NCBI GenBank assembly: GCA_963746845.1
Contig: CAVVCZ010000006.1
Span: forward strand, 288,001 to 352,000
From: an uncultured Chloroflexia bacterium
GTDB taxonomy: Bacteria; Chloroflexota; Limnocylindria; Limnocylindrales; CSP1-4
DNA length: 64,000 nucleotides
Direction: 5' to 3'
Below the pieces are notes generated by a model. That model did no database searches and was not told the DNA's origin. It was given only the letters and a program-made list of their open reading frames with translations. Below, piece after piece: positions 2,969 to 53,327 of the stretch (positions within the stretch are counted from its first letter, which is position 1; each line of letters starts with the position of its first letter). The position numbers and the translations under genes were made by a program.

Positions 2969-4780
2969 TCAGCTCTCGCCCATCCGGAGCATCGCGAGGA
3001 ATGCCTCCTGCGGGATCTCGACCGACCCGACCCGCTTCATCCGCTGCTTGCCCTCTTTCTGCTTCTCGAGCAGCTTCCGCTTCCGGGTGATGTCGCCACC
3101 GTAGCACTTGGCCAGCACGTTCTTGCGCATGGCACGGACGGTTTCGCGGGCAATGACGTTACTGCCGATCGAGGCCTGGATCGGAATCTCGAACATCTGG
3201 CGGGGGATCAGCTCCTTCAACCGCTCGGTCAGACCGCGCCCGACGGACTGGGCCTTGTCGCGGTGGACGATCAGCGACAACGCGTCGACGGGCTCGCCGT
3301 TGACGAGGATGTCGACCTTCGCGAGGTTCGCGGCCCGGTAGCCGAGCTCCTCGTAGTCCATCGACGCGTAACCCTGGCTGCGGCTCTTCAGCTGGTCGAA
3401 GTAGTCGACGATCAGCTCGGCCAGCGGCATCTCGAAGTGGAGGACGACCCGCGTCGGGTCGAGGTACTCCATGTTCTGGAACAGCCCGCGCCGGTTCGTG
3501 GAGAGCTCCATCAGCGAGCCGATGTAGTTCGATGGAGTCACGACGCTGAGCTTCACCCACGGCTCCTCGAGGGTCTCGATGTCGGACGGGTTCGGGAGCA
3601 GCGACGGGTTGTCGATCGCGATCTCGCCGCGGCCATGGAGCAGCTGGACGTGGTACTCCACCGAGGGCGCGGATGCGATGAGGTCGAGGTTGAACTCGCG
3701 CTCGAGGCGCTCCTGGACGATCTCCATGTGGAGCAGCCCGAGGAACCCGCAGCGGAACCCGAAGCCGAGCGCCACCGAGCTCTCCGGCTCGTAGGTGAAG
3801 CTCGCGTCGTTGAGGTGGAGCTTCTCGAGCGCCTCGCGGAGGAGCGGGTAGTCCTCGCCCGAGACCGGGTAGATCCCCGCGAACACGAGGCTCTTCGCCG
3901 GCTGGTAGCCCGGCAGCGGCTCCGTCGCGGGCCGGGCGACCGTCGTGACCGTGTCGCCGACCTGGGCGTCGCGGACGCTCTTGAGCCCGGTCGCGATGTA
4001 GCCGACCTCGCCGGCGGTCAGCTGCTTGACCGGAACGAGCTGCGGCCGGAACACGCCGAGCTCCAGCGGCTCCGCGGTCGCGTCGGAGCCCATCAGCCGG
4101 ATCTCGTCGTGCTGACGGAGGGTGCCGGCCGCCAGCCGGACGTAGACGACGACGCCCTTGTAGGCGTCGTAGTGGCTGTCGAAGATCAGGCCCTGGAGCG
4201 GCTTCGCCGGGTCGCCCTTCGGCGCCGGGATCCGCGCGACGATCGCCTCGAGGATGTCGGCGACGCCGGTGCCGTCCTTCGCGCTCGCGAGGATCACCTC
4301 CTCGCGCGGGATCGCGAGGACGTTCTCGAGCTCGTCCATGATCGTCTCGGGGTCGGCCGAGGGCAGGTCGATCTTGTTCAGGACCGGGATCAGGGTCAGC
4401 CCCTCACGCAGCGCGAGGTGGACGTTGGCGAGCGTCTGGGCCTCGATCCCCTGGGTCGCGTCGACGACGAGGATCGCGCCCTCGCAGGCCTGAAGGCTAT
4501 GGCTGACCTCGTAGGCGAAGTCGACATGGCCGGGCGTGTCGATGAGGTTCAGGCCGTAGATCAGACCGTCGCGCGCCTGGTATTCGAGGCGGACCGCGCG
4601 GGCCTTGATCGTGATGCCCTTCTCGCGCTCGAGGTCCATCGAGTCGAGGACCTGGCTCATCATCTGCCGGCCCTCGACCGTATGCGTCAGCTCGAGGAGC
4701 CGGTCGGCGAGGGTCGACTTGCCGTGATCGATGTGGGCGATGATCGAGAAGTTGCGAAGACGATCCTGAGGGATGGCCAC
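2969..4780 (-). CDS. lepA: Translation elongation factor 4 (LepA)
   Basis: [48 protein letters not shown]; GTG start at 4780. Confidence 0.98.
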
Positions 4781-4868
4781 GACGCGGGAGTGTAGCCCAC
4801 CATGCTGCCTGGGCAGCCACGTTCTGTCAGGTCGCGGCCCGGTGCCATCTGACGCGAGGAGGGCGATC

Positions 4869-5219
4869 ATGGAGGTTCATCTCGGAGTCGTCGTGTCGAA
4901 CGTCGCGACCGATGATTGGCAGCCCGACCCTGAAACGGGCGGTGAGATGCACGTGCTGTTCGAAGGCGAAGGGGCATACGTCGGCATGTCGCGCTTCCTG
5001 GACGTCGCGGAAGTGGGCCCGTTGACCCTGCCGGCCAGGGAGTCGTTCTTGATCCTCGAGGGTGCAGCGCGCATCGAGATCGCCGGCAGGCCCACGCTGG
5101 AGCTGAACGTCGGCGACATGGCCTCGATCCCGGAGGGTGCCTCTGTCACGTGGCACCTCACGCTGCCCTTCAAGGAAGTGTGGTTCTTTGGCAGCGCCTA
5201 CGAGATGGCCGCGGACTAG
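4869..5219 (+). CDS. Cupin domain protein (cupin_3/EutQ-like)
   Basis: [13 protein letters not shown]...[17 protein letters not shown] cupin pattern. Confidence 0.7.
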
Positions 5220-5237
5220 CGACACGATCAACCGGAG

Positions 5238-6008
5238 ATGCGACAAGTGGCGACATCCGACGGGATCCGGCTCCACGCCCTCGACGGTGGCACCGTCCGG
5301 GCGACCGGCGACGACGCGACCGCGATGTCCGACGACGGCGCCTACAGAGGCCGGACCCTCGACATGCCGGTTCCGTGCTTCCTGATCCGACATCCCCGGG
5401 GCGACCTGATGTGGGAGACGGGCATGTCGCGGACCCGGACCGACCTCGGCGAATGGGCGACGCCCGGCGTGAGCCTCGTCGACCAGTTACGGGTGCTCGG
5501 CGTGGCACCGACGGACATCCGCTTCCTGGCGCTGTCGCATGGCCATTGGGACCACTCGGGCAACGCCGGACTGTTCGCGAGCTCGACCTGGCTCGTCGAT
5601 GCGATCGAACGTCGGTGCATGTTCGACGACGAGAACCGCGCCTCGCCGTCGATGGACGACTACGGTGCGCTCGAGACGTCGACGACGCGCCTGATCGGCG
5701 ACGACCACGATGTCTTCGGCGACGGGTCGGTCGTGATCATCCGCGCGCCCGGCCACACGCCGGGCCACACGGTGCTGCTGGTACGTCTGGCGCGCGCCGG
5801 GCCGATCCTCCTGACCGGCGACCTGTGGCACGTGACCGAGAGCCGGGTGCACCGACGCGTCCCGGTCTTCAACACGGATCGTGCCCAGACCCTCGCCTCG
5901 ATGGACCGGATCGAGGCGCTTGCGGCCGCGATCGGCGCTCGCGTGGTCATCCAGCACGATCGCGGGGACTACGAATCCCTACGGCGCCTCGCGACGGGCC
6001 TGCGGTAG
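5238..6008 (+). CDS. N-acyl homoserine lactonase-family metallo-beta-lactamase
   Basis: HGHWDH, PGHTPGH, LTGD and QHD metal ligands. Confidence 0.8.
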   Translation: MRQVATSDGIRLHALDGGTVRATGDDATAMSDDGAYRGRTLDMPVPCFLIRHPRGDLMWETGMSRTRTDLGEWATPGVSLVDQLRVLGVAPTDIRFLALSHGHWDHSGNAGLFASSTWLVDAIERRCMFDDENRASPSMDDYGALETSTTRLIGDDHDVFGDGSVVIIRAPGHTPGHTVLLVRLARAGPILLTGDLWHVTESRVHRRVPVFNTDRAQTLASMDRIEALAAAIGARVVIQHDRGDYESLRRLATGLR

Positions 6009-6401
6009 GGAGCTCGCGGCCGGCCCGGCCGACGTGGTGGCCTCGCGGCGATCGAGGTAGTAGCTCGTCCCGGTCAGGGCGACGCCGAACAGCACGACCG
6101 CCAGGACCACAGCGAAGAACGGGTCACCCGTCGTGAGGAACAGGGCGAGGAGCCCGAAGCTCAGGACCGAGCGGACGACAAGGGTCGTGGTGTAGAGGAC
6201 CTCGACGTGGTGTCGGATGATCTGGACGATCAGGATCCCGAGCGCGAGCAGCACGAGGCCCGCGAGCCGCAGCGCAGCCTCCTCGTACGTGTGGTTGGAC
6301 TGGAGCAGCTTCGTCGCGAACGTCGGGACGAAGAGCAGGAGAAGCCCCGACGGGATGACGTATCCGGCCAGGTAGTACAGGCTCAGGTGGGTCCGACGCA
6401 T
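5979..6401 (-). CDS. Four-TM hypothetical membrane protein
   Basis: ATG at 6401 after GAAAGGGAG RBS; four hydrophobic segments; divergent from an HxlR regulator. Confidence 0.7.
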   Translation of the reverse strand: MRRTHLSLYYLAGYVIPSGLLLLFVPTFATKLLQSNHTYEEAALRLAGLVLLALGILIVQIIRHHVEVLYTTTLVVRSVLSFGLLALFLTTGDPFFAVVLAVVLFGVALTGTSYYLDRREATTSAGPAASSLPQARREAP

Positions 6402-6514
6402 GGCTGGCTCCCTTTCCGTGCGCCCGGCGGCGGAGGCCCGCCGGGCAGTCCGTTGCGTGACGCTACGGACTCTACGCGAGTGCGTTTCTTGATGCAACGG
6501 GGTAGATTCCGGCC

Positions 6515-6964
6515 ATGCGCCGGACCAGCCTCGCCGACTTCCACTGCTCCGTGGCCCGGACCGTCGACGTCATCGGGGAGTGGTGGACGCCGCTGATCGT
6601 CCGGGACGCGTTCTACGGGCGACGCCGCTTCGAGGACTTCCAGCGCAGCCTGGGGCTCGCCCGGAACGTCCTCGCGGCCCGGCTCGACCGGCTCGTGGAG
6701 TCCGGGATCATGGAGCGCCGGCGCTACCAGGACCGGCCGCCGCGTGACGAGTACGTCCTCACCGAGAAGGGACGCGACCTCTTCCCGGTCATCGCCGCGA
6801 TGCTCGCCTGGGGCGACCGATGGACCGCCGGCGAGGCCGGCCCGCCGCTCCTGCTCGTCCACGAGCCGTGCGGCGAGCCGGGAACGCTCCGAGCCGTGTG
6901 CGACCACTGCGGCGAGCCGCTGACCCTGGACACGATCCGCCCGCAGCCCGGCCCGGGCGCCTGA
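6515..6964 (+). CDS. HxlR-family winged-helix transcriptional regulator
   Basis: CSVARTVDVIGEWWTPLIVRDA...RRFEDFQ...EYVLTEKGRDL...WGD. Confidence 0.9.
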   Translation: MRRTSLADFHCSVARTVDVIGEWWTPLIVRDAFYGRRRFEDFQRSLGLARNVLAARLDRLVESGIMERRRYQDRPPRDEYVLTEKGRDLFPVIAAMLAWGDRWTAGEAGPPLLLVHEPCGEPGTLRAVCDHCGEPLTLDTIRPQPGPGA

Positions 6965-7087
6965 GACGGGTCGCTTCGGCGCCGTCGCGGTGGTCAGAAA
7001 CCGTGGCCACCTGCTACCATGCGCGTTCGTGCTCGGCCCCTTCCCGCCGTGCCGTGTCCACGACACCCTTCTGAGAGGTTCGACCCC

Positions 7088-7720
7088 TTGGCCAAGACGC
7101 CCCGCACCTGGACGGGCGCCCGAACGCCGTCGGGACTGAAGCGCGTCCGTCAGGCCGAGCGCCGGCGCGACATCCTTCAGCCGAGGCGGAGCGCCGCAAA
7201 GACCTACGTCGCCACCGCCCTGAGCGTTGCGACCCACGACACCGATCCGGAGGTCGCCGCGAAGGCACTCTCGGACGCCCACGCCGCGCTCGATCGCGCG
7301 GCGAAGGTCGGTGCCATCCACCCGAACGCTGCCGCGCGGCGCAAGTCGCGCCTGACGATCAAGTTCAACGCCGCGACCGGTGGCGCCACGGTCCAGACCT
7401 CGAGCCGCGTCGTGAAGACGACCTCGAAGGCCCAGGCCCAGAAGGCGGCCAAGACCCGGATCGCGCTCGGCAAGGCGAACAAGGCGAAGGGCGCCCAGAC
7501 GGCGGCCGGCAAGGCCCGCGCCGCGGTCTCGAAGTCCGCCCGCACGGAGGCCGCCGCGGCCGCGGCGGTGGCCGTCGAAGTGGCCGAGCCGACGACGGCC
7601 AAGGCCGCGCCGAAGGCGAGCTCGACGAAGAAGGCCCCGGCAAAGGCGACCGCGACGAAGGCGGCCCCGAAGGCCACGGCGAAGAAGGCACCCGCGAAGA
7701 AGACCGCCGCGAAGAGCTGA
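7088..7720 (+). CDS. rpsT: 30S ribosomal protein S20 with long Lys/Ala-rich C-terminal extension
   Basis: SGLKRVRQAERRR...LDRAAKVGAIHPNAAARRKSRL S20 motif; TTG start at 7088 after GAGG. Confidence 0.9.
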   Translation: MAKTPRTWTGARTPSGLKRVRQAERRRDILQPRRSAAKTYVATALSVATHDTDPEVAAKALSDAHAALDRAAKVGAIHPNAAARRKSRLTIKFNAATGGATVQTSSRVVKTTSKAQAQKAAKTRIALGKANKAKGAQTAAGKARAAVSKSARTEAAAAAAVAVEVAEPTTAKAAPKASSTKKAPAKATATKAAPKATAKKAPAKKTAAKS

Positions 7721-7742
7721 CGCTCGACGCGCCGCTCAGACG

Positions 7743-7772
7743 AACGCCCCGGATCCGATCCGGGGCGTTTCT
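7743..7772 (+). terminator. Intrinsic terminator after rpsT
   Basis: aacgccccggatc-c-gatccggggcgtt hairpin followed by tctcgt. Confidence 0.75.
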
Positions 7773-7799
7773 CGTGGCCGGCGCGACCGTTGCTCGCGA

Positions 7800-8000
7800 T
7801 CAGTGCGGGACGCTGCACACGAACTGGGCAGCGATCGGCCCGGCGACCACCGCGGCGGCATGGACGACGTGGACGGCGGCGAACCCGGCCACGGAGCCGC
7901 CCGCCAGGATCGCCGCCAGCGGGCGACGCACCCGGGAGGCCGCCCGTCGGCCTCGACCCACCGCGCTTCGCGGATCCGGTCCGACGACAAACTCGTCCAT
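7800..8000 (-). CDS. Small hypothetical protein with one hydrophobic segment (66 aa)
   Basis: MDEFVVGPDP...LAAILAGGSVAGFAAVHVVHAAAVVAG; TAGACT -10 lies 7 nt before the ATG (leaderless geometry). Confidence 0.5.
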   Translation of the reverse strand: MDEFVVGPDPRSAVGRGRRAASRVRRPLAAILAGGSVAGFAAVHVVHAAAVVAGPIAAQFVCSVPH

Positions 8001-8046
8001 CAGCTGAAGTCTAGCGAGTCCATCGTCCCTTGCGGTTGTCGACGGC

Positions 8047-8598
8047 ATGGGCGATCCTCGCGGCGTGCTGTCTGCCGGGCCCACCGGGCGTTCGACGGTG
8101 CCGCTGCTCGTGGCGCCGCTGCTCGTGGTCGCGGCGATCGCCCTCCTGAAGATCTCGAACGAGCTCCTCTCCATCGGCCCGTTCGACCGGGCACAGTTCG
8201 GCTGGCTGATCCCGATCCCGATGCTGCTGCTCGCCCCCGCGGTCGCCGGCCTGGCGGCGCGCGCGACCGGCGAGCGACGGGCGATGGCTGCCCTCATCGC
8301 CCTGTCAGCCGCCCTCGGCGGCTTCGTGACGGTACTCATCGCGTCGTCGACCCGGCAGATCGGCTGCACGCCGATCGAGGGCGCCTGGGGCGCACTCGTG
8401 CCCGCGGCGTTCATCGGATTCACGGGCGGTCTCGGCTTCGCGGCCGCGGGAATCGTGGCGCTCCGCCTGCGGGAGCGGCCGCTCGTCGCCCTCCTCGGCA
8501 GCGCTGCCACCGCGGTCATCGCCGGAGCGCTCACCCTCATCGTGTTCGGAGCGGTGTTCGCGGCCGGCACCTGCGTGCCGCTGCCCACGCCGGGCTGA
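8047..8598 (+). CDS. Hypothetical multi-TM membrane protein
   Basis: About six hydrophobic segments, host-like GC3. Confidence 0.7.
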   Translation: MGDPRGVLSAGPTGRSTVPLLVAPLLVVAAIALLKISNELLSIGPFDRAQFGWLIPIPMLLLAPAVAGLAARATGERRAMAALIALSAALGGFVTVLIASSTRQIGCTPIEGAWGALVPAAFIGFTGGLGFAAAGIVALRLRERPLVALLGSAATAVIAGALTLIVFGAVFAAGTCVPLPTPG

Positions 8599-8603
8599 GT
8601 CCG

Positions 8604-11772
<3,169 letters not shown>

Positions 11773-11788
11773 CGGGCCGCCGCCGCGG

Positions 11789-12808
11789 TCAGGCCGCGAC
11801 CGGCAGGCGCGCGGCCACGAACCCGATCAGGTCGGCGACGCGGCAGCTGTAGCCCCACTCGTTGTCGTACCAGCTGATGACCTTCACCATCGTCCCGTCG
11901 AGGACCATGGTCGACTCGGCGTCGATGATCGAGGAGCGAGGATCGCCCCGGAAGTCGGTCGACACGAGCGGCTCGTCGCTCACCCCGAGGATGCCCTTGA
12001 GCGGGCCTTCGGCGGCCGCCCGGAACGCGGCGTTGAGCTCCTCGACGCTCGTCCGGCGGGAGACGTCGGCCGTGAAGTCGACGACGCTGACGGTCGGGGT
12101 CGGGACGCGCAGGCTGAACCCGTCGAACTTGCCTTTCAGGTCCGGGATGACGAGGGCGAGGGCCTTCGCCGCGCCGGTCGTCGTCGGGATGATGTTCTGG
12201 CCCGCCGCGCGTGCCCGGCGCGGGTCCTTGTGGGCGACGTCGAGGATCCGTTGGTCGTTCGTGTAGCTGTGGATCGTGTTCATCAGGCCGCGCTCGATCG
12301 TGAGCAGGTCGTGGACGACCTTGGCGGCCGGGGCGAGGCAGTTCGTCGTGCAGCTCGCGTTGCTGATGATGTGATGGGCGGTCGGGTCGTACTTGTCCTC
12401 GTTCACGCCGAGGACGATCGTGATGTCCTCGCCCTTGGCCGGGGCGCTGATGATCACCTTCTTCGCGCCGGCCGTGATGTGGGCCTTCGCCTTCTCGGCG
12501 TCCGTGAAGATCCCGGTGGACTCGAGGACGATGTCGACGCCGAGATCACCCCACGGCAGCGCCGCGGGATCCTTCTCCTTCAGGACCTTGATCTCGCGGC
12601 CGTCGATGATCAGGGCGTCGTCCGTGTGGTCGACCGTCCCCGGATAGGCGCCGTAGGTCGAGTCGTGCTTGAAGAGCAGGGCGTTGAGCGGCGTCTCGAC
12701 CAGGTCGTTCACGGCCACGATCTCGATGTCCGGCGTCCGCTCGATGAGCGCCTTGAGGGATTGGCGGCCGATCCGCCCGAAGCCGTTGATGCCGACACGC
12801 ACTGCCAT
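11789..12808 (-). CDS. gap: Glyceraldehyde-3-phosphate dehydrogenase (type I)
   Basis: [33 protein letters not shown]; ATG at 12808. Confidence 0.98.
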
Positions 12809-13076
12809 CGTTGCCGTCCTCCGCGAGCGCGGGCGCCGATCGGCGCCGGTTGGTCCGTCATTGGGCCGGGGCATGGCGCGCAGCGGCGCGAACCCCTCGT
12901 CCGTGATGCTCCCATCGTACGACGTCGCGGGGCCAGAGCCGTTCGGCCCGAAGGTTCCGGGACCGTTGCGGATGGGTTGCGCCGCCGCAGACGGCGAGAC
13001 GGGCGATGCGAGCCGGGAATCGAACGGCCCCCGCCGTCACCGGCAGGGGCCGTCTCGGATCGAGTTCGGGTCGGCG

Positions 13077-13217
13077 TCAGCCGCCGATCTTGAAGACCTT
13101 GCCGCCGCACTTCGGGCAGGTGCCCTGGAGTGCCGGCTTGCCGTTCTTCATCGTGATCCGCGTCGGATTCACGACTTCGACCTTCATCTTGTCCTTGACG
13201 CAATAGGCTTCGGCCAT
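13077..13217 (-). CDS. DUF5679-like small Zn-ribbon basic protein (46 aa)
   Basis: Manual translation MAEAYCVKDKMKVEVVNPTRITMKNGKPALQGTCPKCGGKVFKIGG; strong GAGGAGGAG RBS; below the ORF-track cutoff. Confidence 0.85.
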   Translation of the reverse strand: MAEAYCVKDKMKVEVVNPTRITMKNGKPALQGTCPKCGGKVFKIGG

Positions 13218-13283
13218 GGAGCGGGCTCCTCCTCGGTTCGGCGTGGCGTCACGGAACGCTTGTCCCGTGTCCGCGTCTCGCGA

Positions 13284-14138
13284 TCAGTTCCAGAGGGACG
13301 GTCGCCAGCGATCCGTCCCGGCTTCCCGTTTCTGACGGTCCATCGTCGCGAGGATCAGGAGCGCCTCGAGCCCCGTCTCCACGCAGGCGGCTTCTGCTGC
13401 GTCCTTTGCCGCTCCCTCGATGAATGCCCCGGTCGTGCGCTGCGCGTAGACCGCACAGACGACGCCGGCCCGGCATCGAGCGAGTGTCGCGAGCACCAGC
13501 AGTGCCGACGCCTCCATCTCGAAGTTCATGACGCGCTGGCGCGCCATGTCCTCAGCCAGGTCAGGGTAACGGATGGGCAACTGCGGGATCGGGCGCCCTT
13601 GCGCACCGAAGAACCCGGGTGCCGTGGCCGTCACCCCGACATGGGTCCGGTGTCCGAGCCGCTCGGCGGCCTCGATGAGCGCCAGGACCGCCTCGTAATC
13701 GGCGACCGCCGGATACCCATCGTGGACGAAGAAGCTCGTGGTCGACTCGAGCCGGACAGCTCCGGTCGAGACGATCAGGTCTCCCAGGGCGATCTCCGGC
13801 TGGAGACTGCCGCAGGAGCCGACCCGAACGAAGGTCGGACGATCCGTGATCGCCAGGATCTCCGCCACCGTGATCTCGACGTTATCCGTGCCGATCCCGG
13901 TCGAGACGACCGAGACACGGGTGCCGCGATACGTTCCGGTGACCGACGCGAACTCCCGGTGGCGCCGCTCGAACTCCACGTCGTCAAGACGCGTGGCGAT
14001 CCGGGCGGTCCGATCGGGGTCACCGGGGAGGAGGATGTACTCGGCCAGTTCACCCGGTCCGAGTCCGATGTGGTATTGCCGGTCTCCGACGGGGAGTGCT
14101 ACGCGGGGATCCGCGTTCGGCAAGACCTCGTCCCTCAC
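13284..14138 (-). CDS. udp: Uridine/nucleoside phosphorylase (PNP_UDP_1)
   Basis: QYHIGL, LLPGDPDR, HREF, STGIG, RVGSCG, FFGAQGR, NFEME; start uncertain (GTG 14138 or TTG 14123). Confidence 0.85.
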   Translation of the reverse strand: MRDEVLPNADPRVALPVGDRQYHIGLGPGELAEYILLPGDPDRTARIATRLDDVEFERRHREFASVTGTYRGTRVSVVSTGIGTDNVEITVAEILAITDRPTFVRVGSCGSLQPEIALGDLIVSTGAVRLESTTSFFVHDGYPAVADYEAVLALIEAAERLGHRTHVGVTATAPGFFGAQGRPIPQLPIRYPDLAEDMARQRVMNFEMEASALLVLATLARCRAGVVCAVYAQRTTGAFIEGAAKDAAEAACVETGLEALLILATMDRQKREAGTDRWRPSLWN

Positions 14139-14294
14139 TCTGGCGTGCTTCGCTGGCGCGAAACTCGGGCGAGGATAGTCCCGGGCTCTTCGGAGCGTCA
14201 AGCACGGCCACGCACGAGCCACGCTCGGCGGACCCCGCTCCGGGCGGCCTCCGGCGCCCGTCCGGGTCCATGGTCGGGCCCGTCGCGGAGGTGG

Positions 14295-17200
14295 TCACCG
14301 AGCCGGGCCGCCTGACTCGGGCGGCCGGGAGGCGTCGATCGAGACCGGTGTCATCCCCGGCGTGATGGCGGGTAGGGCCGTCGCCGCGGGCCCCACGAGG
14401 ACCTCCAGGCGGGCGGCGATCCGCGCCGCGAGGCGGCGGCGTGAGCGCTCGCGCCGGAGGATGGTGACGCCGAGCGAGGCGAGCGCGACAAGCACGATCC
14501 CGGTGATCCCGAGCTCCGGGGCGAACGGATCCGAGACGCCCGCCGCGATCGGCGTGTCACCCGTGCCGAGCGCCGATCCGAGGTCGGCCGTCGCCGGGTC
14601 GGAGCCGGTCGCCGATGGGGCCACGCTGCCCCCGCCGTCTGCCACGAGGTCGCCCACCCGAACGATCCCGGCCGGATCATCGACGACGATCACGGTCGCG
14701 TCTGCGTCGACGCCGGATCCTCGTTCGACCCGTCCGATCGCGCTCAGCGCGTCATCCGCCGACAGATCCGTCAGGCCGTCGAGCGCCGCGCCGCGAAGCA
14801 CGACCCGGGCCACCGCGGTGCCGTCGTCCAGACGGAACCCGTCCGTTTCGAGCCCGGCGACGAGCCCACCGACCCGGACGGTCTGGCCGACGTGCTCGTC
14901 GATCGCGACGAGATCGATGTCCGTCGCGGCCGCGGCGAGACCGGTGGCACCGCCGGCGGCCGCGCCGGACGATGAGCCAGCGGGACCGCCCCGCTGGGTG
15001 CCCGGCTTGCCGCCGGTCGTCCCGGCACCGGCATCGTCGATCGGCCCACCGATCGTCACGTCACGAGCCGAGCGGGGCAGGATCGCGAAGCGGCGGTCCG
15101 TCGCCGACGGGTACGGCCGGCGCACGATGCCGACGATCGTCGCGGTCCGGCCCTCGACGATCGCGCTGGCCGGGATCCCGGCACCGGCGAGGCCGAGGAT
15201 CGGGATCCGTTTGCCGCCGACGAGCAGCTCGGCACCCCAGCGGTCGCCCGACCGATGGAGGTCGACGACGTCGCCCCGGACCCGGACGAGCCGCCACTCG
15301 TGCGCGGCGCCCGGCGCGGTCCGGAGCTCCAGCACCTTCGCCGTGTCGCCCCCGAGGCGTCGGACCTCGTCGGCTCGGATCCGCGGCGCGCCGTACGCGA
15401 TGCCGAGGTCGCCGCTCACCCGGACGTGGGTGCCGACCGGTGGGGCGGACGTGCCCGTCGGCAGGAGGACCTCGATCGCCGCGGACCGGTCCTGGATCAC
15501 GATCCGGCGGCCGGTCGCGTCGAGGAGGCGCGGGCCGATCGTCACGACGCCGTCGACGGTCACGTGGCCCGTCTTCGCGAGGATCGCGGCCGCGATCGTC
15601 ATCGGCGATCCGGCTGATCCGCCGGGGAGCGTCGATCCCGACGGTCCGGGGCGTGGTGTCGGGGTCGCCTTCCCGCCGCCGATGCGGACGATGTCAGCGG
15701 CATCACGCAGACAGATCCGGAAGCCGTCGGCCGCGCCCTTGCGGCTCGCACGCTGGCCGACGACGCCCGTTACGCGCAGCCGCGCGTGAGCGGCGATCGA
15801 GGATGCGGCGATCCGTGACGACCCGTCGGCGGCGATGCGGATCGATCCACCGGCCGACGTGAGCGTGAACGAGAAGTCACCGCCGGGCGCCTTCGACGGC
15901 TTCGCATCCACGGTGCCTTCGACCGTCACGAGCCGTGCCTCGACGGCCTCGCCGATGCCCGCCGGGCCGACGGCCGACGAGCTCGGTGGACCTTCGGTCC
16001 CGAGGACGCGGAGCCCGCCGACGAGACCGCGGAGCTCGAGCTGACCGAACGGGTCGGCGAGCGTGCCGGTGAGCTCGACCCGGACGCCGCGGGCGGGGTG
16101 CGGGTCGGTGTCGGACAGTCGGACGACGATCCCGGCCGTTGCGTCCTGGATCGCGATCAGCGGCGGCGTGCCGAGCCTGCCGGCCTCGGCCGTCACGATG
16201 CCGGTGACGCTGACCCGGCCGCCGACGGGGCGCATCCGCGCGGCGGCGATCGTCGTTGTCGGTGCGCTCGGGGCGGGGGTCGGGTTCGGGGCTGGCGTCG
16301 GCGTCGGCGTCGGGGCCCGGGTCGGAGTCGGCGTCGGGGCCCCGGTCGGAGTCGGCGTCGGGGCGCTCGGCATCGGCACCGACGTCGGAGCAGGTGTCGG
16401 CGTCGGGGTTGGCGTCGGCGTCGGAACGGGCGTGGGAGCCGGCGGCGCCTCCACGGTCACCTCACCGGCCAGCGTCGCGTGAAGACGATATCCGGCCGTT
16501 CCGCTGCCGCTGCTGTCGCGCTGCCCGAGCGGGCCGGTCGCGTGGACGAGGTCCCCGGTGTGGATCGTCGCGACCCCGAGAGCGAGCGACCCGACCACGA
16601 TCCGGAGCGGCCCGGTTCCGTCGTCGATCGTGACGCCGAGTCCGTCGGCGAGCGCCGCCGGCGCCTCCGTGACCACGCCGCCCACCGTCAGTCGCAGGCC
16701 CTCGAGCGGCTCGCCGGTCGCTCCGGTCTCCGCCCCGACCGGCGCCGGGATCTCCGCGGGTCCACCCACCGTGATCGACGCCGCCGCGACGTTCAGCACG
16801 CGCAGGTTGAAGTAGCCGCCGAGCGTGCCGGTGACGGTCACCGAGCTTCCGGCGGGGATCGGCGCTTCGATCGCCGTATCGAGTCGGACGGCGATCCCAC
16901 CGGTGACGTCCTGGACGAACCCGACCCGTGCCGAGTCGATCGCCCCGAGGTCGGTCGTCAGCACGCCGGCGACCGTGGCGGTGCTTCCGTCGGTCAGCTG
17001 ACGGGCATCCGCGATCCCGATGATCGTCGGGGTCGGGGCCGGCGTCGGAACGGGCGTCGGGGTTGGCGTGGGCACCGGGGTGGGCGTCGGCGTGGGGACG
17101 GGCGTCGGGACGGGTGTCGGCGTCGGCGTGGGGATGGGGGTGGGCACCAGGGTGGGCGTCGGCGTCGGCGTGGGCGTCCCGCTCGATCCGCCGATCGGTG

Positions 17201-41136: not shown

Positions 41137-42966
41137 CTAGGCCTCCGCGATGACGCCGATCGAGATGCGGAACCCCGCGCGGCGCTGGAGCGGCGGCATC
41201 AGCGTGCCCTGACCGATCGGCGTGTCGCCCGGGAACCAGCGGACCCACTCCTGGTTGAACGCGTCGAACTCGGTCGGGTCGCGCAGCGACCAGTTCGCCC
41301 AGACGACCTTGTCGAGGGAGCTGCCGGCCGCCTCGAGCTTGGCCTTCAGGTTTGTCATGCACTGGCGGGCCTGGTCCTTGATCGCGTTGCTGACGACCTG
41401 GCCAGTCTCCGGGTTGATCGGACCGACGCTCGAGACGTAGACCATCCCGCCCGCGGCGACCGCTCGGCCCTGGCCGACCCGCAGCGCGGCGGCCAGCGCG
41501 GCGTGGGTGTCCTCCTCGCTCGAGCCCCAGCGACCCTTCATCGGCAGGGACGGCTTCGCCGGGTCCTCCGGTGGGATGCCGAACTCGCCCGGCGGCAGGT
41601 CCACCCCGTTCTTCCGGAACTGGGGCATGAACGTGGGGCGGATGCCGGTCGGCTGGAGCCGGCCCTCGATCTTGCCCTCGTCGTTGATCCCGGTCTGCTG
41701 GAACGCGAAGATGTCCTGGGTGAGGATCTCGTCGTCCTCGATCCCGTAGACCTCGGTGATGTTGACGACCTTCCGGGTCCCGTCCTTCAACCGGGCGGTG
41801 TGGACGATCAGGTCGACGGCCGAGGCGATCTGCTCGCGGATGGCGCGGAGCGGCAGCTGGTAGCCGGTCATCAGGACCATCGTCTCGAGCCGCCGGAGCA
41901 TGTCGTTCGGGCTGTTCGCGTGACCGGTCGAGAGCGACCCGTCGTGGCCGGTTGTCATCGCCTGAAGCATGTCCAGCGCCTCGCCGGACCGGCACTCCCC
42001 GACGATCACCCGGTCGGGCCGCATGTGCATCGCGTTCCGGAGAAGCTGGCGGATCGTGATCTCGCCCTCACCCTCGAGGTTCGGCGGGCGCGACTCCAGG
42101 GTGATCACGTGGTCCTGGCGGAGCTGGAGCTCGGCGGCGTCTTCGATCGTGACGATCCGCTCGTCATTCGGGATGAAGGACGACAGGACGTTGAGCGTCG
42201 TCGTCTTGCCGGAGCCGGTGCCGCCCGAGACGAACAGGTTCAGCCGGGCCTCGATGCAGGAGCGGAGGAACTCGAACATGTCGGGGGTCGCCGTCCCGAA
42301 CCGGATCAGGTCGTCGACGGTGTACGGCCTCGTCGCGAACTTGCGCACGGTGATGACCGGGCCGACGAGCGACAGCGGCTCGACGATCGCGTTGACGCGG
42401 GAGCCGTCGGGGAGGCGCGCGTCGACCCGCGGGCTCGTCTCGTCGATCCGCCGGCCCATCGGGGTGATGATCCGGTCGATGATCCGGAGGACGTGCTCGT
42501 CGTTCAGGAAGTGGCTGTCGATCTTCTGGATCTTGCCGCCGCGCTCGATGTAGACGTGGGTCGGCCCGTTGACCATCACCTCGGTGATCGACTCGTCGTG
42601 GAGCAGCGGCTCGAGCGGCCCGAAGCCCGTGACGTCGTCGGACAGCTCGTCGATCAGGCGGATCCGCTCGTCGCGGGTCACCGCGAAGCCGTCCTGTGCG
42701 ATGGTCCGGTCGACGATCGCCTCGATCGTCAGGCGCGCGTCCGTGTTCTTCTCGTCGAGCAGCGTGTCGAAGGCGTTCACGGCCTCGGCCTGGAGGCGAA
42801 GCCGGATCCCCAGCAGCAGCTCCTCGCGCGCCGCGCTCCGAACCGGAGACGGTGGCATGACGGGCGCGGGCGGCGGCGTGACGGGCGGAGGCGGCGTGCC
42901 CGCATTCGTCGAATTTGCCAGCTCCGCGGCCTGCTGCGCCCGTTCCACGCGCCGGAGCAGGGACAT
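41137..42966 (-). CDS. CpaF/TadA secretion ATPase fused to a C-terminal RidA/YjgF-like domain
   Basis: GFGPLEPLL, EVMVNG, DARLPDGSRVN, SGGTGSGKTT, IEDAAEL, MRPDRVIVGECR, TGHDGSLSTGH; the last ~115 aa follow the Rid-family pattern. Confidence 0.92.
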   Translation of the reverse strand: MSLLRRVERAQQAAELANSTNAGTPPPPVTPPPAPVMPPSPVRSAAREELLLGIRLRLQAEAVNAFDTLLDEKNTDARLTIEAIVDRTIAQDGFAVTRDERIRLIDELSDDVTGFGPLEPLLHDESITEVMVNGPTHVYIERGGKIQKIDSHFLNDEHVLRIIDRIITPMGRRIDETSPRVDARLPDGSRVNAIVEPLSLVGPVITVRKFATRPYTVDDLIRFGTATPDMFEFLRSCIEARLNLFVSGGTGSGKTTTLNVLSSFIPNDERIVTIEDAAELQLRQDHVITLESRPPNLEGEGEITIRQLLRNAMHMRPDRVIVGECRSGEALDMLQAMTTGHDGSLSTGHANSPNDMLRRLETMVLMTGYQLPLRAIREQIASAVDLIVHTARLKDGTRKVVNITEVYGIEDDEILTQDIFAFQQTGINDEGKIEGRLQPTGIRPTFMPQFRKNGVDLPPGEFGIPPEDPAKPSLPMKGRWGSSEEDTHAALAAALRVGQGRAVAAGGMVYVSSVGPINPETGQVVSNAIKDQARQCMTNLKAKLEAAGSSLDKVVWANWSLRDPTEFDAFNQEWVRWFPGDTPIGQGTLMPPLQRRAGFRISIGVIAEA

Positions 42967-43185
42967 CAGGAGACCTCCCCTCGGTCACCGATCATGCTGA
43001 TGAGCGTCATTTCGTTCGAGCGAGGCCGATAAGCGGGCCGCGCCCTGGCTGGGTACTGGCGGAGCATAACCCGAAGGTACGGGCCCCTCGTTGCGCGCCG
43101 TCAACCTTGATTGCAGGAGCCTTCCGGGACCCTCCCGCGGATCGATCCGGGCACGCTGCTGCGCTATACTCCGCGCTCCGGCTGT

Positions 43186-48990: not shown

Positions 48991-49830
48991 GTGCCGCTGT
49001 TCATGGATCGCCACGACCTGCCCGGCGTCACGGCCGCGCAAGTGGCCCACATGCATCTCCTCGACCTGCCGGTGTCGGCCCGCCACGACGTTCATTTCCT
49101 CTCGTACTGGTTCGACGCCGCTGCCGGAGCCGCATTCTGCCTGGCCCGGGCTCCCGCTCCCGAGGCGCTGGCGGCGGTCCATCGCGAGTCCCACGGGCAG
49201 GTCCCCAACAGGATCATCGCGGTCGACGAAGCGAGCATCCTCAGGTTCCTGGGCAGGATCGAAGAGCCCGTCGACCCGGCCAGCGTCACGAGCCCGTTTC
49301 GCACCATCCTGTTCACGGACCTCGAGAGCTCGACGTCCTTGCTGTCCGAGCTGGGTGAGTCCGCGTACATGGCGTTGCTCGACGAGCACGACCTGATCAT
49401 CCGACGCGCCCTGGTGGCCAGGAGCGGCCGCGAGGTGAAGCACACTGGCGACGGCGTCATGGCCTCGTTCGACGACGTTGCACGTGCGTTGGCGTGCGCG
49501 ATCGACATCCGCGACAGGCTCGATGACCGCAACGGATCGCGTGGAGCGCCAGCCTTGCTGGTCCGCATCGGTATGGCAGCGGGCGAGCCTGTCGACCGCG
49601 ACGACGACCTGTTCGGTACGACGGTGAACCTGGCCAGTCGCATCTGCAACGCTGCCCACGGAGGCCAGATCCTCGTCTCGGAGCTCGTGCGCGAACTCGG
49701 GATCAAGGAAGGCTTTGCCTTCACTCCGGCCGGAGCAAGGATCCTGAAGGGATTCCCCGGCTCGATTGCCCTCTTCCAGCTGGATCGGCTGGCCCCGGCA
49801 AGCCGTGACCGGGCGAGTCCTCCGACATGA
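48991..49830 (+). CDS. DUF4242 (SCO4226-like) domain fused to a class III adenylate cyclase
   Basis: MPLFMDRH..AHMH..YW..FCL..AP..VHRESHG; ILFTDLESST, VKHTGDG, DLFGTTVNLASR. Confidence 0.9.
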   Translation: MPLFMDRHDLPGVTAAQVAHMHLLDLPVSARHDVHFLSYWFDAAAGAAFCLARAPAPEALAAVHRESHGQVPNRIIAVDEASILRFLGRIEEPVDPASVTSPFRTILFTDLESSTSLLSELGESAYMALLDEHDLIIRRALVARSGREVKHTGDGVMASFDDVARALACAIDIRDRLDDRNGSRGAPALLVRIGMAAGEPVDRDDDLFGTTVNLASRICNAAHGGQILVSELVRELGIKEGFAFTPAGARILKGFPGSIALFQLDRLAPASRDRASPPT

Positions 49831-50032: not shown

Positions 50033-50740
50033 ATGGATCAGGCATCGGCGCCGTGGCGCGTCCTGGAATCCGCCGACGACGCGAGCGAGCCGGGCCCCGG
50101 TGCGCGCCCGGCCGAGAGCGGGATCACGGCGCACCGGCTGTTCCCGTTCGCGATCACGGTTCTCGCGGCGGGTCTCGCGGTCGGGGCGTTCGCCGTCGCC
50201 GCCATCGGGGCGCGGCCGTCGATCGACGTCACCGGGGCCACACCCCAGGGGTCGGGTCCGGCCGACGCGTCGGCGCCCGCCGCCGGGCCGGCGTCGTCCG
50301 GCGGCGGAGCACGGCTCGTCGTCGACGTCCAGGGTGCGGTCGCCCACCCGGGCGTTGTTCGTCTCGTGGCCGGATCGCGTGTCGGGGATGCGATCGCGGC
50401 GGCCGGCGGCTACGGCCCGCGCGTCGCCGCCGATCGGGTCGGACAGGTCCTGAACCTCGCGGCGCTCCTCCGGGATGGCGACCAGATCCTGGTTCCGTCA
50501 CGCGACGACACGGGGCCCACGACGGCCGATCGCGGCGGGGCGGCCACCGCACCGATCGACCTGAACACCGCGACGGGCGAGCAGCTCGACGCGCTGCCCG
50601 GGATCGGCCCGGTGACGGCGGCGAAGATCCTCGCCGCACGCGACGAGCAGCCGTTCAGGTCGGTCGACGATCTCAAGTCGCGGAAGCTCGTCGGAGCGGC
50701 GACCTTCGACAAGATCCAGGCGCTCGTCACCGTCCGCTGA
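50033..50740 (+). CDS. comEA: Competence protein ComEA
   Basis: [43 protein letters not shown] HhH. Confidence 0.93.
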
Positions 50741-50759
50741 GCCCGACCGAGCATTCGAC

Positions 50760-53327
50760 ATGACCTCCAGCGGCTGGCTGGCGATCGGCGCCGTCGTCGC
50801 TAGCCTCGTCGGACGGCGGATCGACCCGGCCTCGCTCGTGCTGCTGGCGACGGCGCTGTCGGTCGCGGCGGCAGGCTTCCGAGCAGGACGTCCGGTCGCG
50901 ACGCGGCGGCGGGTCACGTCCCTGATCGTGCTGGGGATCGGGGCGCTCGTCATCGCCCTGCGTCTCGCGTCGACCGCCCCGCCGGGGGGAGCCGTCGCCT
51001 CGCTTCCTGGCGGCTCGGGGCCGTGGACCGGCACGGTGGTCGGCATCTCGTCGCCGCGCGATGGCCAGCAGGTCGCGACGCTCCGACTCGACGGCGACGA
51101 GGCCGACGAGGCCCGCCCGCGGATCCTCCCGGTCACGGTGACGGCCACGCTCCCCCGCTTCCCGGCCGTGGAGCCTGGCGTTGTCGTCCGCGTCTCCGGG
51201 CGTCTGGAGCCGCCGCCGGACGGGCCCTACGGCGACTACCTGGCGCGGACCGGGGTTGCGGGCAGCCTCTTTTCCCGAAGCCTCGCGGTCGTCGGTCGGG
51301 AGGACGATCCCGGCTCCCGGCTGGAGGGGCTTCGGCGGGCCGCGGGTGACGCGCTGGCGGCGGCCATCCCGGAGCCGGAGGCCGGTCTCGCAGCCGGGAT
51401 CGTGATCGGACTGCGCGATCGTGTGGATCGCGACGTGGCCGCCGCCTTCACGACCGTCGGCGCGAGCCATGTCGTGGCGATCTCGGGCTGGAACATCGCG
51501 ATCGTGGCGGCGACCGTGGCCGCGCTCGCCGGTCGCCTCGGACGTCGCCGCCGGGCCATCGTGCTCGTCGTCGCGATCGTCGCCTACGTCCTGTTCGCGG
51601 GCGCGTCGCCGTCGGTCGTCCGCGCTGCCGCGATGGCTGGTGTCGTGCTGCTGGCACGCGAAAGCGGGCGAGCAGGGCGCGCGGCCGCGGCGCTCGGCTG
51701 GGCGGCCGTCCTGCTGCTGGTGGCCGATCCGGGCCTGATCGACGATCCGGGCTTCCAGCTCTCGACGCTCGCCACGGGCGGCATCCTGGCGTGGGCCTCG
51801 TCCTGGACCGAGCGGATCGGCCGGCTCGCCGGTGGCCGCGTGCCCCGTTGGCTCGCCGAGTCGCTCGGGGTCTCACTGGCCGCGCAGGTCGCGACGCTCC
51901 CGGTTGTCCTCCTGACGTTCGGGCGGCTGGCGGTCGTCTCGCCGGCCGTGAATCTCGCGATCGTCCCGATCGTGGCGCCGGCAATGGCGGCCGCCCTCGT
52001 CGCCCTCGCCGGCGGCGCCGCGTCGCTCCTCGGCGGCCCGGCCATCGTGGCGACCCTGGCCGGCCTCCCCGCATGGGGCCTGCTGACCGCGATGTGCACG
52101 ATCATCCGCGCGGCCGCGGCGCTGCCGTTCGCGAACGTGAGCTTCGGGCCGCCATGGACGCTCGTCGCGGGCGGTCTCAGTGCGGCCGCGATCCTCCGCG
52201 GCCCGGCGATCTGGCGATGGGCCCGTCGCCAACGGTCCGGCCGGCGGGCTCGAGAACCGCGGCCGGACTCGGCCCGGAACGATCGGTCGCCGGTCAGCCG
52301 GCCCGCGCGTCGCTCGTCGCGTCTGGCCCTGATCGGGCTCGTCGCGGCAGCTGCGAGCCTCGGGCTGGCGTTCGCCCACCGCGTTGACGGCACGACGCGG
52401 ATCACCGTCCTCGACATCGGACAGGGCGACGCGATCCTCGTCGAGGGGGGTCGCGGCGGCCGGATGCTCATCGACGGCGGACCGGACCCGGATCGGCTGC
52501 TCGTCGAGCTCGACCGGAGGCTGCCGCCGTGGGATCGACGGATCGACATCCTCGTGCTGACGCACCCGCACGAGGATCATGTCGCGGGGATGCCGCTCCT
52601 GCTCGAGCGCTACCGGATCGGCCGGATCTACGAGACCGGGATGCGCGGGCCGGGACCCGGCTACCGGGCGTTCGACCGCGAGCTCGCCCGGGGTGGCGCG
52701 CCGGCGAGGGCGCTGCTCTCGACGGGTGCGCGGATCGCCGTCGACGACATCCGTTTCCGGGTCCTGTGGCCGGATCCCGGTCGCGTCCCGCGGCAGCCGC
52801 CGGACGCCGGTCGCGGGATCAACGACGTCTCCGTGGTCCTGCTGGGCGAGGTCGCCGGGCGGCGGATCCTGCTGACCGGCGACGTGGAGGACGATGTCGA
52901 CCCGCTGCTCGCGAGCCGTGGCCTCCCGCCGGTCGACATCCTGAAGGTCGCCCACCACGGGAGCGCAACGGCGTCGACCTCGACGTTCCTCGACGAGGTC
53001 CGGCCGAAGGTGGCGATCGTGTCGGCCGGCGCGGGCAACCCGTACGGGCATCCGGCGCGATCGACGATCGATCGGCTCGCCGCCACGGGGGCACGCGTCC
53101 TCCGGACGGACACGGACGGCTCGGTCGCGGTCACGATCGATCCGGCCGGCGCGATCGCGGTGTCGACGACCGGTGCGCGTCGATCCTGGCTGTCGGCCCC
53201 GATCGCCGCCCGCCTGGCGATGGCGCGGATCCCGGCCCCGGGACCGCCGGCGGCCGCATCGCAGGCGGCGCCCATCCTCCGACCGGGTCCGGTCGCGTTC
53301 ACGTGCGGGATACCATCGACCGGATGA
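50760..53327 (+). CDS. comEC: DNA internalization competence protein ComEC/Rec2
   Basis: SHVVAISGWN, SPSVVRAA, GFQLS, DIGQGD, THPHEDH, KVAHHGS, NPYGHP. Confidence 0.95.
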   Translation: MTSSGWLAIGAVVASLVGRRIDPASLVLLATALSVAAAGFRAGRPVATRRRVTSLIVLGIGALVIALRLASTAPPGGAVASLPGGSGPWTGTVVGISSPRDGQQVATLRLDGDEADEARPRILPVTVTATLPRFPAVEPGVVVRVSGRLEPPPDGPYGDYLARTGVAGSLFSRSLAVVGREDDPGSRLEGLRRAAGDALAAAIPEPEAGLAAGIVIGLRDRVDRDVAAAFTTVGASHVVAISGWNIAIVAATVAALAGRLGRRRRAIVLVVAIVAYVLFAGASPSVVRAAAMAGVVLLARESGRAGRAAAALGWAAVLLLVADPGLIDDPGFQLSTLATGGILAWASSWTERIGRLAGGRVPRWLAESLGVSLAAQVATLPVVLLTFGRLAVVSPAVNLAIVPIVAPAMAAALVALAGGAASLLGGPAIVATLAGLPAWGLLTAMCTIIRAAAALPFANVSFGPPWTLVAGGLSAAAILRGPAIWRWARRQRSGRRAREPRPDSARNDRSPVSRPARRSSRLALIGLVAAAASLGLAFAHRVDGTTRITVLDIGQGDAILVEGGRGGRMLIDGGPDPDRLLVELDRRLPPWDRRIDILVLTHPHEDHVAGMPLLLERYRIGRIYETGMRGPGPGYRAFDRELARGGAPARALLSTGARIAVDDIRFRVLWPDPGRVPRQPPDAGRGINDVSVVLLGEVAGRRILLTGDVEDDVDPLLASRGLPPVDILKVAHHGSATASTSTFLDEVRPKVAIVSAGAGNPYGHPARSTIDRLAATGARVLRTDTDGSVAVTIDPAGAIAVSTTGARRSWLSAPIAARLAMARIPAPGPPAAASQAAPILRPGPVAFTCGIPSTG

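Follow-up and report, generated by a model that had tools for sequence, protein, structure and literature searches.

Tad pili have been described as single-motor systems (PMC12019362, 10.1101/616128), and none with two dedicated motors appears in the literature that we read. According to a recent preprint (10.64898/2026.02.24.707734), the ring of the motor ATPase CpaF flips, its N-terminal face driving extension and its C-terminal face retraction; the R387A substitution and a C-terminal mCherry fusion are reported there to stop retraction by CpaF, not extension, and PilB and PilT are modelled as docking by opposite faces. For proteins of the Rid/YjgF fold, the account of Niehaus 2015 (PMC4433059) is that one Arg is essential for imine hydrolysis by RidA, its replacement by Ala nearly abolishing activity, that changes of Tyr17 and Glu120 have little effect, and that Rid subfamilies without this Arg are presumed to be non-deaminases. 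Here, we analyze a gene that brings the two families together. It lies in a 64,000-nucleotide stretch (the window) of the genome of an uncultured Chloroflexia bacterium (contig CAVVCZ010000006.1, positions 288,001 to 352,000) and encodes a CpaF/TadA paralog fused to a Rid-fold domain that lacks the catalytic Arg. We tentatively propose that the product is an accessory second Tad motor ATPase with a non-catalytic Rid cap. Nucleotide positions are those of the window, residue numbers those of the 609-amino-acid protein, whose features are as follows.

41137..42966, minus strand: whole gene, 609 amino acids plus stop, a CpaF/TadA paralog fused to a Rid-fold domain (single open reading frame; Pfam T2SSE and Ribonuc_L-PSP)
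42974..42980, minus strand: Shine-Dalgarno-like GGGGAGG, 7 nt before the ATG (sequence reading)
42835..42966, minus strand: residues 1-44, a conserved MSLLxRVE start followed by a variable Pro/Ala-rich stretch (3 of 44 columns invariant in the 35-protein alignment)
42637..42834, minus strand: residues 45-110, the helical N1 region, less conserved than any other folded part (by alignment with the CpaF of the tad locus)
42292..42636, minus strand: residues 111-225, ATPase N2 domain (Pfam T2SSE; alignment with 9e24, the Caulobacter CpaF; invariant at 54 of 115 columns)
41572..42291, minus strand: residues 226-465, catalytic C-terminal ATPase domain and CpaF C-terminal motif (9e24 alignment to residue 456; own-locus CpaF alignment; invariant at 106 of 175 core columns)
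42199-42225, minus strand: Walker A, GGTGSGKTT, within the catalytic ATPase domain (sequence)
41905..41907, minus strand: codon of N354, the equivalent of Caulobacter CpaF R387, the retraction-face Arg (offset of +33 in the 9e24 alignment)
41470..41571, minus strand: residues 466-499, variable linker with one invariant Lys, K477 (38% mean pairwise identity; low model confidence)
41140..41469, minus strand: residues 500-609, Rid/YjgF-fold domain without the catalytic Arg (PF01042; AlphaFold2 model; Foldseek; three-copy model)
41203..41220, minus strand: residues 583-588, P-I-G-Q-G-T, in place of the P-A-R active-site motif of RidA (alignment to 2csl)

Both halves of the protein are recognized in a Pfam scan. 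T2SSE (PF00437) matches residues 113-392 with an E value of 3e-61 and 207.6 bits against a gathering score of 24.9, and Ribonuc_L-PSP (PF01042) matches residues 501-583 with an E value of 4.2e-16 and 59.5 bits against a gathering score of 27.3. These matches bear out an earlier sequence-only reading of this DNA, which had proposed an intact CpaF ATPase running into a Rid-type C-terminus. The best NCBIfam match, the TadA family TIGR03819, nevertheless stays below its curated cut-off (328.3 versus 373.15 bits), as does the RidA family TIGR00004 on the C-terminal tail (56-59.7 versus 106.25 bits). The stretches that we take to be Walker A, the Asp box, Walker B, and the His box are all present and, apart from the first His of the His box, invariant across the fused relatives. 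Residues 1-464 align end to end with residues 1-469 of the 471-residue CpaF encoded in the genome's own tad locus (64% identity). The closest solved relative is Caulobacter CpaF (PDB 9e24), residues 80-456 aligning with 113-490 at an E value of 1.6e-117, followed by an archaeal secretion ATPase at 7.8e-46. By these alignments, the window gene encodes a complete CpaF with about 145 extra residues and not a truncated ATPase. For the extra residues, an AlphaFold2 model of the last 124 positions (50-row alignment) reaches a predicted local distance difference test score (pLDDT) of 91.6, and Foldseek superimposes the Rid model on solved Rid/YjgF proteins with template modeling (TM) scores of 0.77-0.82 and root mean square deviations of 1.2-1.9 Å. 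All the top matches listed are Rid/YjgF proteins, the best being 2dyy_G (E 2.4e-11, TM 0.81).

The fusion recurs in one bacterial family. In a survey of 201 genomes of the class, queried with the last 167 residues, 45 of the 60 other genomes of the window genome's family (f1) contain the full-length fusion, whereas none of the 140 genomes of four further families does (f2, 7 genomes; f3, 66; f4, 66; f5, 1; 8 of the 140 unpublished), where only stand-alone Rid-sized matches occur. The fusion assumed in the sequence-only reading is thus real, and relatives do not always carry two separate genes. Open frames of at least 545 amino acids hold 45 of the 48 full-length matches, the other three being cut by contig ends. 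Among 8000 database candidates that were scored, the 120 best homologs listed include 119 with both domains (75-87% identity), the exception being P0010, of 919 amino acids; some carry source labels of Candidatus Limnocylindrales or Chloroflexota, and the annotation reads "CpaF" only. The best 150 matches in a library of representatives at 50% identity include just two full-length fused representatives, P0123 and the frameshift-ridden P0249. In the ESM Atlas, a single cluster of 976 members, commonest in Chloroflexota, has T2SSE in 100% and Rid in 93%. The fused gene is clade-restricted and abundant in soil metagenomes, the soil label coming from records of runs in which no more than a small share of its words occurs. 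One fused protein, P0023 (80% identity to the query), is labeled as a Candidatus Bathyarchaeia archaeon, probably from a mis-binned contig. Two genomes carry two copies of the fused C-terminal region each, G179 (C9:202591-203094 and C2:17815-18318; 65-72% identical to the query) and G191 (C64 and C79; 62-69%), which points to further duplication of the fused paralog.

We next consider what has been kept in the Rid domain, using an alignment of 35 fused proteins. Mean pairwise identity is 85% over ATPase residues 111-465 and 74% over the Rid domain (33 of 110 columns invariant), and falls to 38% in the linker (1 of 34). Aligned by HMMER to 2csl, a solved Rid protein, the domain shows "PIG" for "PAR", "SIGVIA" for "EVACVA", and Gln for the N-terminal Tyr. 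Position 585, which corresponds to the catalytic Arg (Arg105 of E. coli TdcF and S. enterica RidA), is Gly in 35 of 35 fused proteins, and P583, Q586, T588, W556, W559, and C536 are likewise invariant; the position of the N-terminal Tyr varies. The sequence-only reading had taken all three changes as the loss of deaminase residues. The changes themselves are there and the essential Arg is gone, but the absence of the Glu and the Tyr has no diagnostic value, since the Glu120 position is already Ser in Arg-bearing stand-alone relatives and changes of Tyr17 and Glu120 mattered little to RidA as described (PMC4433059). Because the domain is well conserved, its Arg universally replaced by Gly, and that Arg essential in RidA, we infer that the domain is maintained for something other than RidA chemistry and is not an imine deaminase. 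On the ATPase side, the first His of the His box (position 341) is His in 42 of 42 tad-locus CpaFs and Gln in 6 of the 35 fused proteins, the window copy not among them; ATPase chemistry may be altered in that part of the clade.

Structural modeling suggests how the Rid domains could associate. A three-copy model of residues 486-609 scores 0.86 (runs 0.87, 0.83, and 0.86), against 0.01 for the best of three controls, with a partner pLDDT of at least 83 and at least 80% of contacts shared between runs. In calibration, 20 of 30 proteins solved as one-chain pairs reached the mark, compared with 1 of 23 proteins with single-chain structures, counts that apply only approximately here, where three copies and an own alignment were used. 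The modeled interface covers the invariant AGGM-Y, VWANW, and PxGQxT stretches, and the changes specific to the fused proteins (two Trp, Gly for Arg, and a two-residue insertion) lie at or beside it. Six chains of a hexamer could accordingly give two Rid trimers, as the sequence-only reading had supposed; the three-copy model agrees with that part, although the solved Rid trimers may by themselves explain its pass.

Both halves can be traced within the class. A tree of 57 CpaF sequences groups its 15 fused proteins into a single clade (Shimodaira-Hasegawa-like approximate likelihood ratio test, SH-aLRT, 100), with branches much longer than those of the 42 tad-locus CpaFs. In a further tree, rooted with f3 secondary CpaF paralogs and a distant T2SSE protein (both trees come from quick searches, with long branches flagged), the fused clade (support 99) falls inside a 41-row clade (support 95) together with the f3, f1, and f4 locus CpaFs, among which the branching order is not settled. 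The own-locus CpaF is 82-85% identical to f4 CpaFs but 64% identical to the fused paralog. These comparisons indicate that the fused paralog arose within the CpaF lineage of the class and that its evolution has since been faster. We looked for unfused orthologs of the fused clade and rejected their presence: none was found in five f1 genomes without the fusion (G008, G014, G074, G119, and G158) or among the CpaF paralogs of five f3 genomes. A T2SSE search of 121 f1 genomes (115 with a match, one unpublished) gave mostly one or two copies. In G158 (C3 and C2), two unfused locus-type CpaFs group together, an independent duplication of the motor.

For the Rid half, the nearest stand-alone proteins, at 44-55% identity, belong to the same class (f1 and f4). 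In all nine that were compared, DPPAR(Q/S)G occupies the site of PxGQ in the fused proteins, and VVSxTF stands against VVWANWS; the two-residue insertion, with two Arg (R595 and R596, each in 34 of 35 fused proteins), is absent from them. Five stand-alone-type database relatives match TIGR00004 best, one of them above the cut-off. In the window's own genome, a phmmer search of open reading frames finds four stand-alone Rid paralogs, all with Arg at the motif by inspection, and a tblastn search with the Rid domain matched only the domain itself. These Arg-bearing relatives in the class and paralogs in the genome indicate that a RidA-like domain already resident there became joined to a duplicated CpaF and that the Arg was then lost in the fused clade.

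The canonical counterpart of the fused motor is present in the same cell. In the window's genome, which comprises 12 contigs and is 92% complete, there are exactly two T2SSE genes, the fused gene and the unfused CpaF that the sequence-only reading had suggested looking for; the latter belongs to a complete tad locus on another contig (C1:113000-132999, local 3234-13520), which follows a two-component system (LuxR-type response regulator and HisKA_3 kinase) and reads, in order, RcpC/CpaB, receiver-domain CpaE, CpaF, TadB, TadC, and DUF192. TadB and TadC of this locus are the only T2SSF genes in the genome, and there is one prepilin peptidase gene. The N-terminal receiver domain on CpaE suggests that pilus assembly is under phosphorylation control. 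Far from the locus lie 11 matches to the TadE (pseudopilin-like) domain in several clusters (C2, 126-138 kb; C4, 952-953 kb and 1133 kb), many for a genome with a single tad platform.

As a plausible mechanism, the fused paralog would form the usual hexamer, and its six Rid domains would make up two trimers at the C-terminal side of the ring, serving as a structural cap or clamp rather than as an imine deaminase. Since under the inversion model a bulky C-terminal tag abolishes retraction, as the preprint describes it, such a cap might restrict or gate the use of the C-terminal face, so that the fused paralog could act as an extension-biased or regulated motor and rival the canonical CpaF for the one TadB/TadC platform. 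We regard this reading, an accessory second motor with a restricting or gating cap, as credible though a little short of probable. Residues of the presumed retraction face are compatible with it. All 42 tad-locus CpaFs, drawn from three families, have Arg at the R387 equivalent; in the 35 fused proteins it is Lys in 14, Arg in 9, Pro in 5, Asn in 4, and Ser, Gly, and Glu in one each (12 non-basic), and in the 15 fused proteins of the comparison set it is Arg in 3, Lys in 2, and non-basic in 10. The charged positions 448, 449, and 451 of the C-terminal motif are 95-100% conserved in locus CpaFs and variable in the fused proteins. A stronger form, in which the Rid trimers cap the retraction face and lock the ring in one orientation, so that extension and retraction are partly split between two CpaFs on one platform as between PilB and PilT in type IVa pili, would make this the first natural dual-motor Tad system; we consider that doubtful.

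Several observations weigh against an accessory motor with a gated C-terminal face. The R387 equivalent is still Lys or Arg in 23 of the 35 fused proteins, and the β13-β14 turn, a retraction-face element in the preprint (our mapping is approximate), is invariant in all 35. The strongest relaxation is instead found in N1, on the opposite face, where the mean frequency of the top residue is 0.62 in 15 fused proteins versus 0.84 in 42 locus CpaFs. Locus CpaFs are alike, with short branches in the 57-sequence tree, in genomes with and without the fused paralog, and so give no sign of a division of labor. Three genomes (G242, G229, and G207; 90, 87, and 73% complete) have the fused gene and no detected T2SSF gene or locus CpaF, either because they are incomplete or because the fused gene may not depend on the tad locus. 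The passing trimer score may echo solved Rid trimers, a likeness and not a proof. The full-length AlphaFold2 model (35-row alignment) is poor (mean pLDDT 58.2, predicted TM score 0.38, low pLDDT in the linker) and cannot place the Rid domains relative to the ATPase, and the 34-residue linker could let them swing aside. Finally, the inversion model itself comes from a preprint based on AlphaFold3 models and Caulobacter mutants, and its transfer to this Chloroflexota lineage is our inference.

The fused gene itself stands apart from any pilus operon. It is convergent with a 472-amino-acid gene that overlaps the stop of an extracytoplasmic function (ECF) sigma gene, and divergent from tRNA-Ala(GGC) and leuS. 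Of the flanks named in the sequence-only reading, an anti-sigma gene and a tRNA, the tRNA stands, and the anti-sigma identity is suggested by position and a predicted membrane segment in a protein with no Pfam match. The same reading had called the gene an orphan, which agrees with our data: no tadB/tadC, cpaE, or rcpC/cpaB lies around it in the window, and tadB, tadC, cpaE, and cpaB are absent within 8-10 kb of it in the loci of ten relatives. No neighboring gene family is common to more than 4 of the 11 loci, and a conserved partner gene was accordingly rejected; leuS lies beside the fused gene in only 4 of 11, all in the genera nearest the window's, and comEC accompanies leuS. In the window, comEC (Competence and metallo-beta-lactamase domains) is at 50760-53327, plus strand, about 7.8 kb from the fused gene. 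The comEA that the sequence-only reading had placed nearby was not confirmed, the open reading frame at 50053-50763 giving no Pfam match in the frame tested, and its suggestion of a link to DNA uptake is reduced to the proximity of comEC in a neighborhood that is not conserved across loci. A 279-amino-acid protein encoded at 48991-49830, plus strand, combines an SCO4226-like (nickel-responsive protein-like) domain with an adenylate/guanylate cyclase catalytic domain. Upstream of the fused gene, Rfam returned the neighboring tRNA only, with other matches below gathering scores, and a scan for promoter and terminator consensus sequences found none, an uninformative result in a genome of 72% G+C. 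No sequencing run contained half or more of the fused gene's words. One DNA and three RNA runs gave matches of 90-95% for the most part, to the conserved core of ATPases from other organisms. The Rid part was covered only by short contigs with a likeness of about 91%, from two of the RNA runs (X15 and X18), which gives no evidence that this gene is expressed.

Other functions can be envisaged for this protein. The motor might be gated by a metabolite, as in the metabolite sensor of the sequence-only reading, with the clefts between Rid subunits binding a small molecule whose occupancy alters hexamer dynamics and couples metabolism to the pilus. Rid proteins are described as binding small carboxylates in inter-subunit clefts (PMC4433059), the Rid trimer model passes its controls, and the fused clade shows no variation at residues of the pocket and interface, R595 and R596 adding two Arg in its specific insertion. 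However, the Arg that anchors the ligand carboxylate is the one replaced by Gly in all 35 proteins, W556 and W559 take the place of small residues of the stand-alone relatives at the modeled interface and could fill the cleft, and we found no ligand, metabolic gene neighbor, or conserved neighborhood across the 11 loci. If the modeled interface is right, the fused-specific changes located there and the loss of Arg would fit a structural role at least as well as sensing, and we consider metabolite gating unlikely.

Less probable still is co-assembly of the fused paralog with canonical CpaF in mixed hexamers (e.g., 3+3), with one Rid trimer marking or regulating the heterohexamer. The identity of 64% over the full length, the near-identical catalytic cores, the presence of a locus CpaF in most of the further-checked fusion genomes, and the trimeric Rid unit of the three-copy model would all suit such an arrangement. 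Yet ten positions are fixed differently between the two groups (at least 93% one residue in 15 fused proteins, at least 95% in 42 locus CpaFs), and three genomes have the fused gene with no detected locus CpaF. We give a similarly low probability to a motor for some other secretion or DNA-uptake task without TadB/TadC. Here, the orphan position in all 11 loci examined, the same three genomes with no detected tad platform, and comEC 7.8 kb away in the window could be cited in support, as could the reported link of Tad pili to DNA uptake in Liberibacter (PMC8513845). However, the protein nests within the tad-locus CpaF lineage of the class and keeps the platform-facing elements of CpaF (the C-terminal motif and the β13-β14 turn), no alternative platform gene is found in the window's genome, and comEC is nearby by way of leuS, a neighbor of the fused gene in just 4 of the 11 loci.

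A bifunctional enzyme, in which the Rid domain keeps a deaminase or hydrolase activity by way of other residues, appears very improbable. Cys, Gln, and Thr residues that never vary in the fused proteins lie close to the former active site and leave some room for it, and by the published account about 10% of RidA proteins have Ser for Arg and the Arg-less Rid4-7 have functions that are unknown (PMC4433059); the same source, however, reports that Arg to Ala nearly kills RidA activity and that no activity was detected for Arg-less Rid7, and in the fused proteins the Glu is absent too and the neighborhood has no metabolic context. Lastly, an artifact or decaying gene, through a lost stop codon or an assembly chimera, is refuted by the survey: despite the two frames of the gene in the close relative G050 and the frameshifts of P0249, 45 of 48 full-length matches have an unbroken frame, with the other three cut by contig ends, the Rid domain is strongly conserved, and leuS of G050 is also in two frames, which suggests assembly indels. 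This explanation has next to no probability. The G050 contig (same genus; C4, 9727-11542 for the fused gene and 11936-14507 for leuS) does look like one with assembly indels and not like one with genuine pseudogenes.

We found no description of a CpaF-Rid architecture in the literature, in line with the sequence-only reading, which had known of none; the supplementary tables of Niehaus 2015 and of the 2026 preprint might list such fusions, and automatic resources (homolog listings and the ESM Atlas) already record the T2SSE and Rid pair. Tad pili are described as powered by a single bifunctional motor, whose way of reversing is an open question. A widespread soil lineage has fixed a folded, probably trimerizing domain on the C-terminal end of a second motor copy, and selection has maintained this domain although its enzymatic Arg was discarded. 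If the cap does restrict orientation, the fused paralog would be a natural probe of the ATPase-inversion model and would show a route from a single-motor machine toward two specialized motors; the fold of a metabolic-repair enzyme would then have been recycled as a mechanical cap. For the Rid field, the clade offers a clear case of catalysis lost after fusion, with Arg-bearing stand-alone relatives in the same class for comparison.

Compared with known systems, the fused domain shares the fold of the RidA/YjgF/UK114 imine deaminases, with PF01042 and TIGR00004 as its best profile matches and a three-copy model that passes its controls, but differs in scoring below the TIGR00004 cut-off, in having Gly for Arg, Ser for Glu, and a variable Tyr, and in being carried on a motor protein. 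With the Rid4-Rid7 subfamilies, presumed non-deaminases, it has in common the absence of the essential Arg; those subfamilies, by published description, retain the Glu, with Trp or varying residues in place of the Arg, whereas the fused domain has Ser and Gly, respectively (PMC4433059). That the Glu is Ser and that the nearest relatives are Arg-bearing and RidA-like argues for a loss of the Arg independent of Rid4-Rid7. Rid domains are also known from other multi-domain proteins, such as 3x-RidA covalent trimers and other Rid fusions (PMC4433059). Many of our Rid-domain matches (P0153, P0155-P0157, and others) are proteins of about 400 amino acids with three tandem Rid domains, and of P0251 and P0187 one has six Rid domains (803 amino acids) and the other three Rid domains with a HAD hydrolase domain (842 amino acids). 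Ten matches were scanned, namely two full-length members of the fused family, two stand-alone Rid proteins, and six longer proteins, none of the six pairing an independent Rid domain with a secretion ATPase.

On the motor side, the N2 domain, catalytic domain, and C-terminal motif align with those of Caulobacter crescentus CpaF (PDB 9e24/8rkd), and all ATPase motifs are shared. Unlike Caulobacter and tad-locus CpaFs, the fused paralog has 145 further residues (linker and Rid domain) and is encoded away from the tad genes, and it belongs to a separate, faster-evolving clade in which the R387 equivalent is not fixed. Two related ATPases and one platform in one cell recall the dual-motor type IV pili, in which the extension ATPase PilB and the retraction ATPase PilT share one PilC platform; for genomes with the fused paralog, a division of labor is a proposal. 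The nearest mechanical likeness is the CpaF-mCherry fusion (Whitfield et al. 2026 preprint), which, as described there, also places a folded domain on the C-terminus of CpaF. However, whereas mCherry is an engineered tag on the sole motor, the Rid domain is a natural, conserved, and probably trimerizing domain, joined by a long linker to a second paralog.

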